A stretch of DNA of 64,000 nucleotides from an uncultured Actinomycetes bacterium (GTDB lineage: Bacteria > Actinomycetota > Actinomycetes > S36-B12 > UBA10799), in assembly GCA_946803585.1 (NCBI GenBank), contig CAMPEQ010000007.1:30451-94450 (forward strand), in the 5' to 3' direction. Below the pieces are notes generated by a model, which made no database searches, was not told the origin of the DNA, and saw nothing but the letters and a program-made list of their open reading frames with translations. Position numbers and translations under genes: made by a program. Each line of letters starts with the position of its first letter. Within the stretch, counting starts at the first letter, position 1. Of this stretch, positions 3,149 to 33,314 are shown one piece after another.

Positions 3149-5557
<2,409 letters not shown>

Positions 5558-13681: not shown

Positions 13682-13755
<74 letters not shown>

Positions 13756-14014: not shown

Positions 14015-14605
14015 CTATGGCGAACCTGTGCGCGACCTGACGCCCGCGGGTGGGCTGCTCACCGGGCAACTGCAGCGATTGGCAGGACAAGCACAAGCCG
14101 TCGCCTTCACTAGTTTGAGCTGCGGCGTACCGAGACCGGCTGTTGAGTTTGGAAGCTCGGTCAACGCAGTGTCACACCAGCCGACCAGATTTGGGACATC
14201 GATAGAGTAGGGGGAGTCTGCGCTGTGTGGGGCGATGTTGGAACGAGCGCGCCGCAAAACTGCTTCTGCCCCCGCCGTATTGCCGCGCTTAGCGTGGGTG
14301 ATTGCAACCGCGATCTGTGCGAGTCCCTGCCAAAGGCTACGTTCTGTGGCTGGGGCCGACTTCCAGGCAAACTCGAGTACTTCGTGAGCTTGGAACGGGC
14401 GTCCATGACGCAGTAGGTCCTGCGCAAGGTCAAGAGCCTCTTCGGGTTGGAGGTCGATGACTTCAGGTAGAGGATCGACTCCGACTGCGTCTCGGGCAAG
14501 CGGTCGACCAAGTTCATCTCTTGGCCGGGAGCTGAGTGGACGTCCATTGACGTCTCTGTCACGGTCCACTCGGTAGCTCACTTTCGCTCCTAGTTGTCGC
14601 CCCAT
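14015..14605 (-). CDS. DUF309-domain protein
   Basis: The core FQAHEVLEFAWKSAP...WQGLAQIAVAITHAKRGNTAGA matches the DUF309 signature. The C-terminus is Cys-rich (CACPANRCSCP). Confidence 0.7.
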   Translation of the reverse strand: MGRQLGAKVSYRVDRDRDVNGRPLSSRPRDELGRPLARDAVGVDPLPEVIDLQPEEALDLAQDLLRHGRPFQAHEVLEFAWKSAPATERSLWQGLAQIAVAITHAKRGNTAGAEAVLRRARSNIAPHSADSPYSIDVPNLVGWCDTALTELPNSTAGLGTPQLKLVKATACACPANRCSCPVSSPPAGVRSRTGSP

Positions 14606-14805
14606 TTATTGGGCAGGAAGAGGCTGGCGACGCGATTAATCCATCTCAGGATATGTCAATCTCAGAGGTATCGCAGGTATCGCGCTCGGACGGCATCATC
14701 ACTTGCTGAACCTAATCCGGCGCCTTCCTGGTTGTTGCTGCAACATGCGCCATCCGGCCCTTCGTTGGTGATGACTGGCGGGCGCAAGCGCCCTGCGCGC
14801 TCGAG

Positions 14806-15552
14806 CTATCGATATTCGGGGTTGGGGTAGTCGAATCTGCAGCCTGCGTCCCACTCAGACCTCTGGTTACCGTGAGCGGGCAACCCACCAGAACTCTTGA
14901 GCAGGTTCGCCATATGCATGAGGTTCCAGGTCATGAACGTCGTGTTGCGGTTGGTGAAGTCGTTGTCTAGTCCGCCACCGGGGGAGTCCAGGTAGGACGG
15001 TCCGGGGCCCGCCTCGCCGATCCAACCGGCATCGGCCTGCGGCGGGATCGTGTAGCCGACGTGCTGGAGTGCGTACAGGATTCCCATGGCGCAGTGTTTG
15101 ATCCCGTCTTCGTTTCCGGTCACCAGGCATCCACCGACTTTGCCGTAGAAGGCGTATTGGCCTTCGGTGTTGAGGTTGCCCGATTCTCCGTAGAGGCGCT
15201 CGATCAGTTGGGTGGCGACACTGGACTTTTCTCCGAGCCAGATGGGGGTTCCGACGACCAGAATGTCGGCTTCCTTCACAACCTGGTACATCTGCGGCCA
15301 GTCATCGACGTCCCACCCGTGATCGGTCATGTCCGGGTAGACACCCGTAGCGATCTGGTGGTCAATAGCTCGGTATTCGCTGACCTCAACCCCGTTTGCT
15401 TTCATGATTGCGATTGAGCGATCCATCAGTGCCTGGGTATTCGATACCGACGGCGAACGCTTCAACGTGCAGTTGATGTACACCGCTGTCAAGTTCGAGT
15501 AGTCGCCGGGGAAAGTGCTGCAAAGCTGCTCATCGCGCTCAGAAACGCTCAT
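14806..15552 (-). CDS. Flavodoxin-like NAD(P)H-dependent FMN reductase family protein
   Basis: NCTLKRSPSVSNT...ADILVVGTPIWLGEKSS...GNEDG is typical of the flavodoxin-like fold reductases. ATG 15552 is preceded by GGAGG. The ORF-track start 15714 runs into the DUF427 gene. Confidence 0.8.
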   Translation of the reverse strand: MSVSERDEQLCSTFPGDYSNLTAVYINCTLKRSPSVSNTQALMDRSIAIMKANGVEVSEYRAIDHQIATGVYPDMTDHGWDVDDWPQMYQVVKEADILVVGTPIWLGEKSSVATQLIERLYGESGNLNTEGQYAFYGKVGGCLVTGNEDGIKHCAMGILYALQHVGYTIPPQADAGWIGEAGPGPSYLDSPGGGLDNDFTNRNTTFMTWNLMHMANLLKSSGGLPAHGNQRSEWDAGCRFDYPNPEYR

Positions 15553-15592
15553 TGAAACCTCCAAAATAGGGACTCTCTCCACGACTGGGTCG

Positions 15593-15883
15593 TCATGGCG
15601 ATTGGACGATCTGAATGACCGGTGAGAACGCAACGTGGTCACGAATGCCACGAATCCAGATCGGTGGGTGCGGGTAGAACCAGGCGACGTTCTTGACTTG
15701 TTCGCCGTCAACATTGAGGTGGTAGTAGGACGCGAGACCCTTCCAGTAACAGGGAGTGCGGAGGCGGGATGTTTCCAGCAGATTTTGATTCACCGCGTCA
15801 GGCGGGAAGTAGTGGTTGCCTTCCACAACACGGGTCGCGTCAGCCTCGGCGAGGACTGTGTCATTCCAGACTGCACGGATCAA
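15593..15883 (-). CDS. DUF427-domain protein
   Basis: 96 aa with VVEGNHYFPPDAV...RTPCYWKGLASYYHL...NVAWFYPHP (DUF427 pattern). TTG start with GGAGG 5 nt upstream. Confidence 0.8.
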   Translation of the reverse strand: MIRAVWNDTVLAEADATRVVEGNHYFPPDAVNQNLLETSRLRTPCYWKGLASYYHLNVDGEQVKNVAWFYPHPPIWIRGIRDHVAFSPVIQIVQSP

Positions 15884-15924
15884 GGCGCCTCCATATAGTG
15901 AATGTCAGGTCGGGCTGCTAGTTG

Positions 15925-15953
15925 CGAAACCCAGGTGGGGCGGCGTTCATTCC
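15925..15953 (-). promoter_or_regulatory. Candidate ECF-type promoter (tGGAAT-N18-GTTTCG) in front of the DUF427/FMN-reductase genes
   Basis: On the minus strand, GGAAT sits at 15953-15949 and overlaps the anti-sigma stop codon. An 18-nt spacer separates it from GTTTCG at 15930-15925, 41 nt upstream of the DUF427 TTG. The same motif occurs at three other sites nearby. Confidence 0.5.
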
Positions 15954-16234
15954 ATCTCTTGGGTGAGGTTTCGGCCGAAGTCGACGAGGTCGGCTACGGC
16001 TTGGGAATCTGCTGGTTCACTGAACTGCGTCGCCAGGCTTTCCTTGATTGCCCGGTATGTTTCGGCCTCTAATCCGCAGCGTTTACACGCCTCGAGGTGA
16101 CGCAGCACGCGGGTGTGGGTTTGTTCATCCGTTTGACCGTCTAGGACGGATTGCAGTAGTCGCGTTGCCTCCCGGCAGCTTGCGACATCTTTGTCACCGA
16201 CGAGGCGACGCCACATGGACAGTTGACTAGTCAT
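15947..16234 (-). CDS. Zinc-associated anti-sigma factor (ZAS, RsrA/RshA-like), cytoplasmic
   Basis: 95 aa with no TM segment. HxxxCxxC motif (RHLEACKRCG) plus an upstream Cys (VASCREA). 4-nt overlap with the sigma gene. Confidence 0.8.
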   Translation of the reverse strand: MTSQLSMWRRLVGDKDVASCREATRLLQSVLDGQTDEQTHTRVLRHLEACKRCGLEAETYRAIKESLATQFSEPADSQAVADLVDFGRNLTQEME

Positions 16235-16782
16235 GACGGGATCCCTTCATGGAGTGCGGTCCGTTTGGCCACCACGCGGTCACGAATCTTTCGCCGAGCC
16301 CGGTGAAGTCTGCTCATCACGGTTCCTTCCGGAATCCCTAGGTAGGCGGCAGCCTCGGCGTAGGACAACCCATCAATATCGACGAGGACTATGACCTGGC
16401 GAGAGTCCTCGGATACTTCGGATAAGGCGGCGGCTACGACGTCATCTAGCTCTGTACGCATCACATGGTCCTCGGCTGAGAGTCCTTCGTCGGCATGTCG
16501 TTCGCGGGTAGTGTTTTCGGTTAGGTCAATCGGTTCAGGGCGCCGACGGCGGTGATTGTTGTAGTTGGCGTTGCGCATGATGGTGAGCAGCCACGACCGT
16601 GGGTGTCTCCCATCGAAGGTGTCCAGCGAACGCCACGCACGCAACAGCGTGTCCTGAACAAGGTCGCTAGCGTCAGCCGGTTGCGCCGTTAACGACTGTG
16701 CCACCCGAAGGAGGACCGGGACTTCTGGCAATACATCCCGTTCGAAGACCGCTCGAGCGTCACGTCGTTGAGGTTGTCCCAC
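16231..16782 (-). CDS. ECF (sigma-70 family group 4) RNA polymerase sigma factor
   Basis: 183 aa. Region 2 has DASDLVQDTLLRAWRS. Region 4 has LSYAEAAAYLGIPEGTVMSRLHRARRKIR. GTG start. Confidence 0.9.
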   Translation of the reverse strand: MGQPQRRDARAVFERDVLPEVPVLLRVAQSLTAQPADASDLVQDTLLRAWRSLDTFDGRHPRSWLLTIMRNANYNNHRRRRPEPIDLTENTTRERHADEGLSAEDHVMRTELDDVVAAALSEVSEDSRQVIVLVDIDGLSYAEAAAYLGIPEGTVMSRLHRARRKIRDRVVAKRTALHEGIPS

Positions 16783-16787
16783 CTAGA

Positions 16788-16818
16788 GGAAACCCGGTAG
16801 CCATATGCCCGTATTCCC
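16788..16818 (-). promoter_or_regulatory. Candidate autoregulatory ECF promoter (GGGAAT-N19-GTTTCC) of the sigma gene, probably leaderless
   Basis: On the minus strand, GGGAAT is at 16818-16813 and GTTTCC at 16793-16788. The GTT core ends 8 nt before the GTG start at 16782. Confidence 0.55.
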
Positions 16819-16861
16819 AAACTGAGGATCCCATTTCCGAGGGAGAATTTCTTTCAGAGTT

Positions 16862-16892
16862 GGGAAGGTTCGGCGGCGTCCGGGGGGTTTCC
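16862..16892 (+). promoter_or_regulatory. Candidate ECF promoter (GGGAAG-N19-GTTTCC) for the Met-rich membrane protein / ccdA / tlpA unit
   Basis: On the plus strand, GGGAAG is at 16862-16867 and GTTTCC at 16887-16892, ~50 nt before ATG 16944. It mirrors the motif on the other strand. Confidence 0.55.
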
Positions 16893-16943
16893 AGCCCAGA
16901 ACGACATGACCACCCACGCCAACAAGAGGAGACACACGACAGC

Positions 16944-17411
16944 ATGGCAAACACAACAACAGTCGCACCCAAAACGACATCGACCACAACCGAGACAAGC
17001 ATCGGCCAAGCGGCTATCTACGGCGCGCTCGGCGGCATCGTTGGGGGCATGGTCTTCGGAATGATGATGAGCATGCTCGGCATGATCGAAACGATCGCGA
17101 TGCTCGTGGGCAGCGAAGCGCTCATCGTCGGGTGGGCAGCACATATGGCCATATCCGTCTTTATCGGCGCAACCTTTGGAGTGATTGCAAGGGCTCAGCT
17201 CACCAGTTGGGGAACAGGTATCGGGATTGGCGTTGCCTACGGCATGTTCTGGTGGGTGCTCGGGGCCCTCGTTCTGATGCCAGCAAGACTAGGTATGCCC
17301 GTTTTTCAATTCAACACGATGGCGTGGCAGAGCCTGATGGGGCATATGGTCTTTGGGCTCGTCATGGGTGCGGGCGCTGTAGCACTGGCCCGTCAATCCA
17401 GTAGGAACTAG
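16944..17411 (+). CDS. Methionine-rich small integral membrane protein (about 4 TM), function unknown
   Basis: ATG 16944 is preceded by AAGAGGAG. 155 aa with 16 Met by my count (GMVFGMMMSMLGMIETIAML...). The ORF-track start 16698 lies inside the sigma gene region. Confidence 0.7.
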   Translation: MANTTTVAPKTTSTTTETSIGQAAIYGALGGIVGGMVFGMMMSMLGMIETIAMLVGSEALIVGWAAHMAISVFIGATFGVIARAQLTSWGTGIGIGVAYGMFWWVLGALVLMPARLGMPVFQFNTMAWQSLMGHMVFGLVMGAGAVALARQSSRN

Positions 17412-17431
17412 CTCCTTGCGTCCTTGACCGA

Positions 17432-17483
17432 GAGCAGGTGTGTTGAACCGCTACCCGACGTAGTGGGTTCAACACACCTGCTC
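17432..17483. repeat. Perfect 18-bp inverted repeat (hairpin, 16-nt loop) between the membrane-protein gene and ccdA
   Basis: GAGCAGGTGTGTTGAACC (17432-17449) and GGTTCAACACACCTGCTC (17466-17483). There is no U-tract downstream. Confidence 0.8.
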
Positions 17484-17540
17484 GCTATGACGGTCCGGGA
17501 CCTACTGCTCTGTTACTCAACGTTGCCCGATGGGGAATCG

Positions 17541-18464
17541 ATGGAAATTGCTGTTCTCACAACTGCTCTGACTGCTGGGATGTTGGCCGCCTTCAATCCG
17601 TGCGGTTTCGCGCTACTGCCCGGTTACCTTGCACTATTTCTCAGCGATTCGACGAATCAACGTCCTGGTAGCGCGGTCCGCCGCAGCCTACGGGTGAGTG
17701 CATCCATGACTGCCGGGTTTATTGCCGTCTTCACATTCGTCGGGCTGCTGATCTCGGCGCTGTCTTGGCAGATCACCGCGTACACCCCCTACTTAACCTT
17801 GGCAGTCGGGCCAGTTCTCGTGGTGCTAGGAATGTACCTACTTTCTGGTCGCGATTTGAAGTTCGGGATTCCTCGGATGAAAGGACGCGTTGGGTCCTCG
17901 GCGGCCGGAATGTTCATGTATGGCATGACATACGCGATCGTTTCACTGTCGTGCACATTGCCGATCTTCCTCGTCGCTGTCGTCGGGGCCACGCGGACCT
18001 CGAGCTTCGCAGCCGGACTCTTCACCGTTGTGGTGTACGGCCTGGGCATGGGCCTGGTCATCACCGCGTTGACCTTCGCTGTCGCACTGGCTCGTGACGG
18101 CTTTGTCGCAGGTAGTCGAAGGATGGTCCGCTACGTTAACCGCATTTCCGGTGCCCTCCTCGTGCTGGCAGGTGCCTACCTCGCGTGGTACGGCTTCGCG
18201 GAAGTACAGGTCCTGCGTGGAGACTCCGAGGCAAGCTTGCCTGAGATTGGTGGCCAGATAGCGGCCACCTTCACATCGATAATCGACCAAGAGAACCTGT
18301 TCGTCGTTGTCGCGGGGGCGCTGACCATTATCGGTACCTGCGCAGTCGCCATCATTTTGATTAACCGTCGTAACAGCAAGCAATTACCTTCATCAAATCC
18401 AGACGATCTCGCACCAGAGACTGCGCTGGACGAATCACAAACCTCCCAGTTAGGACAGTCATGA
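17541..18464 (+). CDS. ccdA: Cytochrome c biogenesis protein CcdA / DsbD-family thiol-disulfide transporter
   Basis: Conserved membrane cysteines in AAFNPCGFALLPGYL and VSLSCTLPIF, with a multi-TM profile. I placed the start at ATG 17541, downstream of the hairpin. Confidence 0.85.
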   Translation: MEIAVLTTALTAGMLAAFNPCGFALLPGYLALFLSDSTNQRPGSAVRRSLRVSASMTAGFIAVFTFVGLLISALSWQITAYTPYLTLAVGPVLVVLGMYLLSGRDLKFGIPRMKGRVGSSAAGMFMYGMTYAIVSLSCTLPIFLVAVVGATRTSSFAAGLFTVVVYGLGMGLVITALTFAVALARDGFVAGSRRMVRYVNRISGALLVLAGAYLAWYGFAEVQVLRGDSEASLPEIGGQIAATFTSIIDQENLFVVVAGALTIIGTCAVAIILINRRNSKQLPSSNPDDLAPETALDESQTSQLGQS

Positions 18465-19042: not shown

Positions 19043-19098
19043 GCCTAGAACGAGACAGCAGGCATTGGTCGTGCAATCCAACCCAGGTCGCTGCGTGT

Positions 19099-19127
19099 GG
19101 AAGGAATCAGTCAGTCACCGGGTTTCC
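19099..19127 (+). promoter_or_regulatory. Candidate ECF promoter (tGGAAG-N18-GTTTCC) in front of the mycoredoxin gene
   Basis: GGAAG at 19099-19103, an 18-nt spacer, GTTTCC at 19122-19127, ~90 nt upstream of ATG 19219. Confidence 0.5.
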
Positions 19128-19218
19128 CTGGGGAATCGGAATCATATTCCGCCGCTACCCGCGGTATTGAAGACACGCTGCAGAACCTCAACTAGTCCAC
19201 GTCGGAAAGGCGCCACCA

Positions 19219-19473
19219 ATGAACCCTCAGCTCACTGTGTACTCAACGCGATGGTGCGGGTACTGCCTCCGTCTCAAATACCAACTAAAACGAGCGGGCA
19301 TTCCGTACACCGAGATCGACATTAACAAGGACCCTGCTGCTGCCGCCGCGGTTGAACGATTCAACGGAGGTAACCGAACTGTGCCGACGGTGGTTTTGGC
19401 TGATGGCACTGCCCTGACCAACCCGTCGCTGGCCGATCTCCAGCGAGCGCTTTCTTCCGACGCTCGTGGCTGA
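19219..19473 (+). CDS. Mycoredoxin / glutaredoxin-like protein
   Basis: 84 aa. The N-terminal TVYSTRWCGYCLRLK (CGYC) and the RTVPTVVL motif are typical of mycoredoxin-type glutaredoxins. Confidence 0.85.
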   Translation: MNPQLTVYSTRWCGYCLRLKYQLKRAGIPYTEIDINKDPAAAAAVERFNGGNRTVPTVVLADGTALTNPSLADLQRALSSDARG

Positions 19474-31580: not shown

Positions 31581-33314
31581 TTACGGAAGGATCGGCTGCC
31601 AGAAGTCATAACGCTGGGTAGGAATCAGCTGACCAGTGCTGACAGGCGAATCCCACACCACGTAGTCGCTGCCAGTCACTTCGGTGATCTTTGGGTACCC
31701 GAGGCCTTGACTCGGGTTCTTGGCGAAGTTCGCCCAGGCCTGGGTCATTAGGTCTCCTAGTTTGCGCTCCTCATCGGTGACGGTCTGAGCCGGGACGAAC
31801 TCACCCTCGGCATTCTTTGCCAGGAAATTGGAGAAGACGTAGGGCATCTCGGTGGTATGGCAAATATTCTGCGACGGTGGGTTGCAACGCAACATACCGG
31901 CGAAGTTGAAGCCCGAGTCCTTGACGAAGTGATATCCGAATGACGGCAAACCAGCGGCCTGCATTGCCGGTAGTGCCTTTGACGCGGCTTTCATATTCGC
32001 TGCGGCAACGGCATAGTCGGTTTGTAGTTGACCGAGCGCCTGGCTCGCCGAGGTCATCCCGGCAATCGGAAACGGCTCGTAAGCGGATGGGTTGTAGAGC
32101 TCCTTGCCATCCTCGCTGTAACTCTTGATCTTCTTTAGGTTCTTAGCGCCGAACGTCACGGTCATCGCCTGGTCAAACTGTGCTGGGGTCATGGTAGAAG
32201 GCGCGGGTAGGAAGAAGACCCCTTCATTATGATTGACTCCGAATGCGTAGGGCTTGGGATCGTTGCCAGGGTGGTAGCCCTCGATCGGCTGGCCCGTGAT
32301 TGGTGCGACATCAACGGTAGGCGCCCAAGACATCCCTAACGTCATCCCCAGGGTGAGCAAGCCTGTGAGACCGCCTGAGGGCAATGTGAGGTTCTGTGAC
32401 TGGGCGACTTGTTCAGTCGTCAGGGAACGGAGCCACTCGCCACTTGCTGGACATGGATCGGACCCTGAGTAGGCACCGCACAGCAGGTCGACAAAATCCC
32501 TTCCGTACTCCGAGGCTTTTGCTGCGGAGTTGAACGGCGGACTCATGATATTTGATTCCATGATCGCGGCCTGGAACAAATCGTTGCTCTCTGGCACGGA
32601 GAACAGGTGTAGACCAGTCGACATGGCCCCAGCGCTCTCGCCGAAGAGGGTTATCTGCTGGGGATTGCCTCCGAAGTTGCCGATGTTGTCCTTGGCCCAC
32701 TTCATTGCCAGTTGCTGATCCTGGATTCCGAAGTTCCCGCCGATACCGGCTTGCTCGTCGGTGTAGCGCAGATAGCCCAGCGACCCGAGCCGGTAGTTCA
32801 TTGTGACGAGAACGACGTCTTGGTTCACGAGGGCGGTTCCCTCCATGACTGGCTCACCGCCCTGTCCCACGATGAAACCTCCACCGGGAATCCAGACCAT
32901 CACCGGTAGGTCGGTCTTCGTGCTGTCAGATGGCCGGTAGACGTTGAGATACAGGCAGTCCTCGCTGCCGGCAAATCCTGAGAGCTCGCCAGAAGGCTGA
33001 ATGCACTGGTCGCCGAGTTGGGTGGCTTGAAACGGGTCGCCAGGAAGCGAGTCCAGTGCGACTGGCGGTTTCCACCGCAGATCATCGACCGGAGGTTTGG
33101 CAAATGGGATACCGAGGTAGGCATGGGATTGTTGGTTCTGTGCGTTCGTTGCGACGATCCCGCAGAGCTTTCCTGTGTTGACCTCAATCACCGCGACAGC
33201 TGAGTCGCATTCCGGCGGTTGTGTTGAGGAGCTATCAGTCGAGCCGTCGGAGCTCTGCGAACACGCTCCCGCAGTCAACACGACAACCGCCAAGGCGGCT
33301 AGAAGCCTCTTCAT
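31581..33314 (-). CDS. Carboxylesterase/lipase type B family lipoprotein
   Basis: Lipobox LTAGAC, nucleophile elbow FGESAGA, and upstream GGGF oxyanion region (VWIPGGGFIVG). ATG 33314 is preceded by GGAAGGGA. Confidence 0.9.
   Translation of the reverse strand: MKRLLAALAVVVLTAGACSQSSDGSTDSSSTQPPECDSAVAVIEVNTGKLCGIVATNAQNQQSHAYLGIPFAKPPVDDLRWKPPVALDSLPGDPFQATQLGDQCIQPSGELSGFAGSEDCLYLNVYRPSDSTKTDLPVMVWIPGGGFIVGQGGEPVMEGTALVNQDVVLVTMNYRLGSLGYLRYTDEQAGIGGNFGIQDQQLAMKWAKDNIGNFGGNPQQITLFGESAGAMSTGLHLFSVPESNDLFQAAIMESNIMSPPFNSAAKASEYGRDFVDLLCGAYSGSDPCPASGEWLRSLTTEQVAQSQNLTLPSGGLTGLLTLGMTLGMSWAPTVDVAPITGQPIEGYHPGNDPKPYAFGVNHNEGVFFLPAPSTMTPAQFDQAMTVTFGAKNLKKIKSYSEDGKELYNPSAYEPFPIAGMTSASQALGQLQTDYAVAAANMKAASKALPAMQAAGLPSFGYHFVKDSGFNFAGMLRCNPPSQNICHTTEMPYVFSNFLAKNAEGEFVPAQTVTDEERKLGDLMTQAWANFAKNPSQGLGYPKITEVTGSDYVVWDSPVSTGQLIPTQRYDFWQPILP

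Follow-up and report, generated by a model that had tools for sequence, protein, structure and literature searches.

Gene content around the ECF sigma factor

On the minus strand of the window (the whole 64,000-nucleotide stretch of DNA that was analysed), a gene for an ECF sigma factor is followed by genes for its anti-sigma factor, for a DUF427 protein and for a flavodoxin-like FMN reductase. The sigma factor (183 aa, 16231..16782, GTG start, apparently leaderless) scores 105 with the general sigma70-ECF model, against a cut-off of 42.9, and its stop codon overlaps the ATG of the anti-sigma gene by 4 nt. That second gene (15947..16234) encodes a soluble zinc-binding (ZAS) anti-sigma of 95 aa (zf-HC2, 34 bits against a cut-off of 22.2) with the ligands C20, H46, C50 and C53, and the ligand pattern C-x25/26-H-x3-C-x2-C recurs in 79 of 79 anti-sigma orthologs. 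The DUF427 protein (PF04248, 96 aa, 15593..15883, TTG start) clears the Pfam threshold of 22.1 with 94 bits, its nearest solved structure being 3djm, and the FMN reductase (PF03358, the NADPH-dependent FMN reductase family; 248 aa, 14806..15552) scores 37 bits against 24 and matches PDB 5mji at E 3.4e-39. Labels of the type L001-L169 denote individual sigma loci from other genomes; in an alignment with two of these, L081 and L168, the TTG of the window DUF427 gene stands opposite the ATG of the relatives, confirming the start of DUF427. The cysteine of a C-x-W-K-G motif (CYWKG or CPWKG) is conserved between the window DUF427 protein and its homologs in L010, L014, L081 and L084-L086, and may serve in redox chemistry or metal binding.

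Divergently, on the plus strand, lie genes for a 154-aa protein with four transmembrane segments (4-TM; 16947-17411), a DsbD_TM/CcdA-like protein, a redoxin/ResA-like protein and a mycoredoxin (19219-19473; TIGR02200, 95.8 against a cut-off of 89.5).

The nearest solved structure to the sigma factor is Mycobacterium tuberculosis SigH (5zx2, E 3.8e-24). Against the SigH_actino model TIGR02947 the sigma factor reaches 105.5 bits, under the equivalog cut-off of 251.55, and the anti-sigma reaches 28.3 bits against the RsrA model TIGR03988, again under the equivalog cut-off (62.5). Orthologs of the sigma factor are present in Streptomyces genomes, and Streptomyces also has SigR, which indicates a paralogue family and not the SigH/SigR orthologue. 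Judged by sequence, then, the window protein is a SigH/SigR paralogue. Some ZAS proteins are not redox sensors.

A candidate promoter overlaps the anti-sigma stop codon

Where the anti-sigma gene ends, the minus strand reads ...GAG ATG GAA TGA ACGCCGCCCCACCTGGGTTTCGCAACTAGC..., and two blocks in this reading have the layout of an ECF promoter. The -35 element TGGAATGA (15947..15954, minus strand) has its GGAAT core at 15953-15949, with a T ahead of it at 15954, and covers both the last anti-sigma codon, GAA, and the TGA stop at 15949-15947. The extended -10 element TGGGTTTCGC (15924..15933, minus strand) has the core GGGTTTC at 15932-15926, with GTT at 15930-15928. The original prediction, which had described GGAAT overlapping the stop codon, an 18-nt spacer, GTTTCG at 15930-15925 and a further 41 nt (15924-15884) to the TTG of a DUF427 gene (15883-15881) with a GGAGG of its own, agrees base for base with the sequence; the GGAGG Shine-Dalgarno is found at 15892-15888 on the minus strand. 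Written in the convention used for SigR, the site is tGGAATG-16 nt-GGTTt and fits the SigH/SigR-type arrangement of -35 and -10. The -35 sequence TGGAATGA occurs a second time at 15868-15861 (minus strand), inside DUF427 (Trp-Asn-Asp codons) and with no -10 behind it, so that the -35 is uninformative by itself.

Searching the window with the loose motif GGAAT-N17-19-GTT returned 5 matches against 3.78 expected, and at least 5 matches occurred in 35 of 100 shuffles; in that form the motif is therefore no more frequent than chance. Its matches at 32533, 46940 and 55069 lie within genes or face none, score below 11 bits with the family matrix described below, and were rejected. Close to the sigma gene, all three copies have the -10 extension GGGTTTC in common, and the extended pattern GGAAK-N16-17-GGGTTTC has 4 matches in the window against 0.02 expected, all 4 facing a gene start. 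The fourth of them, in front of the mycoredoxin gene, had no part in defining the pattern. Because the pattern had been drawn from three of its own four matches, we built an independent matrix from other genomes.

The comparison set comprised 80 Actinomycetota loci (from Streptomyces, Acidimicrobiia, Nanopelagicales and Mycobacteriales MAGs) with sigma orthologs that are, among the matches listed, 52-61% identical to the window protein. The pattern GGAA-N-SGTT was found within 240 nt 5' of the sigma gene in 60 of the 80, against an estimated ~2 expected from base composition. These 60 sites give the family consensus GGAATG-N15/16-cGGGTT(C/T)CC, in which several positions are conserved though the search pattern did not demand them: T (55/60) and G (49/60) after GGAA, GG before GTT, and C at +2. 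G follows GTT in only 3 of the 60. The matrix was trained on those 60 ortholog promoters only, with no site from the window.

Applied to the window, the matrix ranked the sigma factor's own promoter first (GGGAATA-N-CGGGTTTCC, 16820-16787, minus strand, 21.7 bits), as the predicted autoregulatory promoter of the sigma/anti-sigma operon, and the DUF427-facing junction site second (15956-15924, minus strand, 21.2 bits). The mycoredoxin-facing copy (GGAAGG-N-CGGGTTTCC, 19096-19128, plus strand), 90 nt 5' of its gene, scored 19.3 bits and the divergent copy before the 4-TM/CcdA-like/ResA-like operon (16860-16893, plus strand) 16.0 bits; the next-best score anywhere in the window was 12.7 bits. From 200 Markov shuffles, the chance expectation per window is 0.015 sites of at least 21 bits and 0.46 sites of at least 15 bits, which scales to ~8e-6 sites of at least 21 bits in the 65-nt junction. 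The -10 block of the junction site begins with T, a rare letter at that position among the family sites (3/60).

Conservation at the same junction in relatives

Closer relatives of the window locus were obtained by exact-protein look-up. L081 and L168, with sigma factors 86% and 85% identical to that of the window, have the same order of sigma, anti-sigma, site and DUF427; their sites score 21.2 and 24.0 bits respectively and overlap the anti-sigma stop codon, and the gap between anti-sigma and DUF427 is about 64-80 nt. The two blocks and their spacing are kept as well in L169, a near-identical contig of 752 nt. In L010, where the sigma factor is 57% identical, the gene order is again shared and the site (19.0 bits) is wholly intergenic.

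An alignment of three lineages shows how unevenly the region is conserved. The -35 block GGAATGA is invariant at 7 of 7 positions and the -10 block GGGTT at 5 of 5, against 2/14 in the spacer, 14/60 in the 5'UTR (which carries a 16-nt indel) and 34/57 in the 3' coding region of the anti-sigma gene. Conserved -35 and -10 blocks around a diverged spacer are what a promoter of two blocks should leave in such an alignment. Since the -35 is coding sequence there, the anti-sigma C-terminus (Glu-stop) could account for part of its conservation. For the -10, a non-coding block, coding constraint gives no explanation, nor does it for the site in L010, which is fully intergenic.

Position of the predicted transcription start

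The distance between the motif and the sigma gene proved to be nearly fixed. Counting from the last T of GTT to the first in-frame start codon of the sigma gene, 35 of 57 orthologs have a distance of exactly 9 nt and 48 of 57 one of 9-12 nt, and the window GTG at 16782 (minus strand) conforms to the same 9-nt rule. With the start codon held at this distance, sigma mRNAs would be leaderless and begin nine nucleotides after that T. The fixed spacing also shows the motif to be placed as a directional promoter would be. Carried over to the junction site, the rule predicts a start at A15919 (minus strand), 9 nt past the last T of GTT, and a 36-nt 5'UTR for DUF427 (15884..15919) that contains the GGAGG at 15892-15888. 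A start had originally been forecast at 15915-15920, and the predicted A15919 falls within that range.

Plausible read-through into DUF427 and the FMN reductase

We found no terminator-like site (a GC-rich hairpin with a T-run) in the 63-nt junction between the anti-sigma and DUF427 genes. A sigma-70 promoter and terminator scan of 14500-17600 called no promoter and left the junction empty, the junction RNA folded into no stable structure when compared with shuffles (z = +0.67), and Rfam at E <= 0.1 gave no family at the junction, its sole match being the tRNA at 13682-13755. ARAGORN called a second tRNA, a tRNA-Pro (cgg) at 14461-14532 on the plus strand, within the 5' part of an opposite-strand DUF309 ORF; as the tRNA at 13682-13755 is the only one that Rfam gives, this call is doubtful. 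A hairpin at ~14793-14780, considered as a terminator after the FMN reductase gene, was no better than shuffles (z = -0.39) and was rejected. With no terminator in the junction, read-through from the sigma mRNA start at 16782 is plausible, and an internal promoter would act in addition to it, much as had been proposed.

The FMN reductase gene has no promoter copy of its own: the best matrix score in the 40-nt gap behind DUF427 is -1.4, so that the gene would depend on co-transcription with DUF427. An FMN reductase gene adjoins the sigma gene in only one other locus, L038, where the protein is 67% identical and its gene, directly behind the anti-sigma gene, lacks an internal site (best score -3.1). 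Read-through is evidently the sole route to the FMN reductase there. The L038 arrangement is independent support, from another lineage, for the FMN reductase as part of the sigma factor's transcription unit.

Recurrent predicted targets across orthologous sigma loci

In 600 kb drawn from 85 non-redundant sigma loci, 172 sites reached 15 bits or more with the matrix, against ~64 expected (60 training sites and ~4 chance sites, the latter scaled from the window shuffles). To read the downstream genes we left out wrong-frame ORFs that had been picked automatically in GC-rich loci. The sites most often precede DUF427 or the 4-TM protein (14), Pyr_redox_2 disulfide oxidoreductases (13), a second small ZAS-like protein (13) and CcdA/ResA (11), followed by DUF3179 (5), AhpC/TSA (3), ArsM-like methyltransferases (3), radical SAM proteins (3), mycoredoxin (2) and VTT (2). 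Equivalents of the divergent promoter before the 4-TM operon are found in L081, L084, L087 and L168. The recurrent co-targets, among them MerA/Mtr-like disulfide reductases, CcdA/ResA and ArsM-like methyltransferases, may point to a defence against thiol, electrophile or metal(loid) stress.

DUF427 is present in 16 of the 85 sigma loci, and in every relative with a sigma identity of at least 69% whose contig extends far enough. Of 17 DUF427 genes, 8 have a site scoring 15 bits or more directly 5' of them, compared with ~2% of control ORFs (sigma genes removed); sites before DUF427 near orthologous sigma factors are weak or absent in L013, L020, L046 and L071. We also scored a control set of 80 unselected metagenome DUF427 genes, 45-60% relatives from many phyla. 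Only 4 of these 80 carry a site, and one of the four adjoins an orthologous sigma gene, so the link to DUF427 is specific to lineages with this sigma factor. In L086 (239-991, minus strand) DUF427 is fused to the 4-TM protein in a single 250-aa product, whose 4-TM part is 72% identical to the protein encoded at 16947-17411 of the window, with an 18.0-bit site ahead of the gene; the fusion suggests that DUF427 and the 4-TM protein work together. Our literature search returned nothing tying DUF427/NTP_transf_9 to any sigma factor, nor a function or regulator for the family.

Other features of these neighbourhoods recurred. In L087 a 21.3-bit site lies upstream of a glutaredoxin-family gene and is equivalent to the mycoredoxin site of the window. 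A second ZAS-like small protein (~100 aa) is encoded divergently from the sigma gene in 12 loci (L007 3814-3781, minus strand; L013, L037, L023, L011 and others), and the sites driving these divergent proteins score very high, up to 27.9 bits. Sigma and divergent promoters stand back to back in many orthologous loci, with -35 regions (GGAA/TTCC) that share a few bases in L009, L023, L032, L040 and L049 (~3920-3950); in the window they are ~40 nt apart. Several neighbourhoods have a soft-metal or metalloid flavour (L081 5187-6681; L086 3483-4837; L043, L046 and L058), with ArsM-like methyltransferases behind 25-26-bit sites, a weak MerT-like membrane protein and adjoining MerR/ArsR-type regulators. 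In L085 and L086, Pyr_redox_2 (MerA/Mtr-like) enzymes are fused into the operon after the anti-sigma gene.

Which sigma factor, and is there initiation at all?

Taken together, we consider it quite probable that the junction site works as an internal promoter and that the ECF sigma factor, whose gene lies two genes upstream, recognises it. The sigma-dependent internal promoter proposed at the outset is thus supported computationally: the site matches the autoregulatory promoter of the sigma family, and its blocks are conserved in three independent relatives with the same gene order. Read-through in addition to it is plausible, given a junction devoid of terminators or unusual structure and the arrangement in L038. 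The suggestion that both downstream proteins belong to the regulon is borne out for DUF427 by its repeated linkage to the sigma factor and the frequent site of its own; the FMN reductase would join it solely through inferred co-transcription.

The promoter could be real and yet be used mainly, or also, by another ECF sigma factor of the SigH/SigR/SigE type. The published consensuses, GGGAAT(G/C)-16-(C/G)GTTG for S. coelicolor SigR and (G/T)GGAA(C/T)A-16-(C/G)GTT for M. tuberculosis SigH (PMC3489674), are close to the junction site, the adjacent sigma factor is a paralogue, and the genome may also encode a canonical SigH at another locus; since this class of motif is common to canonical SigH and SigR, the cognate sigma factor is not assignable from sequence alone. 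Such cross-talk is nonetheless unlikely. The extended -10 GGGTTyC is specific to the autoregulatory promoters of the paralogue family, and the junction site matches it. The rarity of G after GTT in that family, set against the GGTTG of SigR, means that the junction site, with GTTT, fits the paralogue better than canonical SigR. High-scoring sites moreover cluster around this sigma gene, at more than the number expected in the 600 kb scanned.

It is also conceivable that nothing initiates at the junction, that DUF427 and the FMN reductase are reached only by read-through from the promoter at 16787-16820, and that the motif is there by chance or through coding constraint. The loose motif is not enriched and its -35 lies inside coding sequence and a stop codon, the junction has no terminator, and the FMN reductase of L038, with no site, shows that read-through alone can suffice. 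We regard this as very unlikely in the light of three observations: a site of 21 bits is hardly to be expected by chance in so short a junction; three lineages keep the non-coding GGGTT unchanged and at one spacing, amid surroundings that are 14-23% conserved; and the site in L010 is entirely intergenic, beyond the reach of coding constraint. That the two blocks are instead operator half-sites or part of an RNA element is highly improbable, for although the -10 of about half of the family sites reads GGTTCC and gives a GGAA...TTCC inverted repeat, the window site reads GTTTCG and has no such repeat, the strict orientation of the motif towards the downstream gene and its fixed 9 nt to leaderless start codons rule out a palindromic operator, and the unremarkable fold of the junction and the lack of an Rfam match there speak against an RNA element.

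A model for the regulon

On the reading that the junction site is an internal promoter of the adjacent sigma factor, the small cytoplasmic zinc-binding ZAS anti-sigma would hold the sigma factor inactive. If RsrA and RshA are a guide, thiol-reactive stress may oxidise or alkylate the Cys/His zinc site of the anti-sigma and so free the sigma factor, and sigma-bound RNA polymerase would then initiate at four promoters close by, all of the form GGAAT(G)-N15/16-GGGTTyC. The first would be that of its own leaderless sigma/anti-sigma operon, providing positive feedback, and two more would serve the divergent 4-TM/CcdA/ResA operon and the mycoredoxin gene. At the fourth, the junction site, a transcript begun near 15919 would carry a 36-nt leader containing GGAGG ahead of DUF427 and, by co-transcription, the FMN reductase. 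These two genes would probably be fed by both read-through and internal initiation, and with both in play their products can exceed the stoichiometrically coupled regulator pair. A promoter built into the last codon and stop of the regulator gene would in this way uncouple effector output from the ratio of sigma to anti-sigma.

Should transcription indeed start at the junction, a thiol-stress ECF regulon would count DUF427 and the FMN reductase among its direct members. The DUF427 family occurs widely; its structure is solved, its function is not known, and it would gain a testable thiol-stress context. Tentatively, and with slightly less than even confidence, we extend this to a widespread ZAS regulon of SigH/SigR paralogues in Actinomycetota, with a leaderless, autoregulated operon, promoters of the form GGAATG-N15/16-GGGTTyCC, and DUF427 as signature effector with the 4-TM protein as its partner, at times as a fusion. 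Were this broader picture true, it would provide the first physiological context for PF04248, in protecting the cell from thiol-reactive, electrophile or soft-metal(loid) stress. The promoter model, combined with a start at GTT + 9 nt, is usable for predicting the regulon of the paralogue across Actinomycetota. The general picture of ECF signalling is unchanged; what the site would bring is mainly a regulatory context for DUF427.

Comparison with known systems

The closest parallels are SigR of S. coelicolor and SigH of M. tuberculosis and C. glutamicum, whose promoters, like those described here, combine a -35 GGAAT with a -10 GTT at equal spacing. SigR/RsrA and SigH/RshA are likewise encoded in autoregulated sigma/anti-sigma operons; RsrA and RshA, like the window anti-sigma, are small and soluble and carry C-x25-H-x3-C-x2-C; and the targets of SigR and SigH are thiol-redox proteins, as here (mycoredoxin, thioredoxin-like proteins and pyridine-nucleotide disulfide oxidoreductases). 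Unlike SigR, with GGTTG, the window family has the extended -10 GGGTT(C/T)C. It is further set apart from SigR and SigH by the leaderless window sigma gene, with its start codon 9 nt past GTT, and by its signature targets, DUF427, the 4-TM protein and CcdA/ResA. For DUF427 itself, the structure 3djm from Rhodobacter sphaeroides represents the PF04248 family, of which the window protein is a clear member (E 2.8e-6); its tie to a ZAS/ECF regulon and its fusion to the 4-TM protein come from the present analysis.

A precedent for the junction site itself is PrshA, a SigH-dependent internal promoter in the sigH-rshA operon of C. glutamicum, with a start located by primer extension (Busche et al. 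2012, PMC3489674). PrshA resembles the junction site in being a promoter for the operon's own sigma factor inside the sigma/anti-sigma cluster that adds a second, shorter transcript. The two differ in position and output: PrshA lies 5' of the anti-sigma gene and raises anti-sigma levels for shut-off, whereas the predicted junction promoter, placed where the anti-sigma gene ends, would serve the downstream effectors only.
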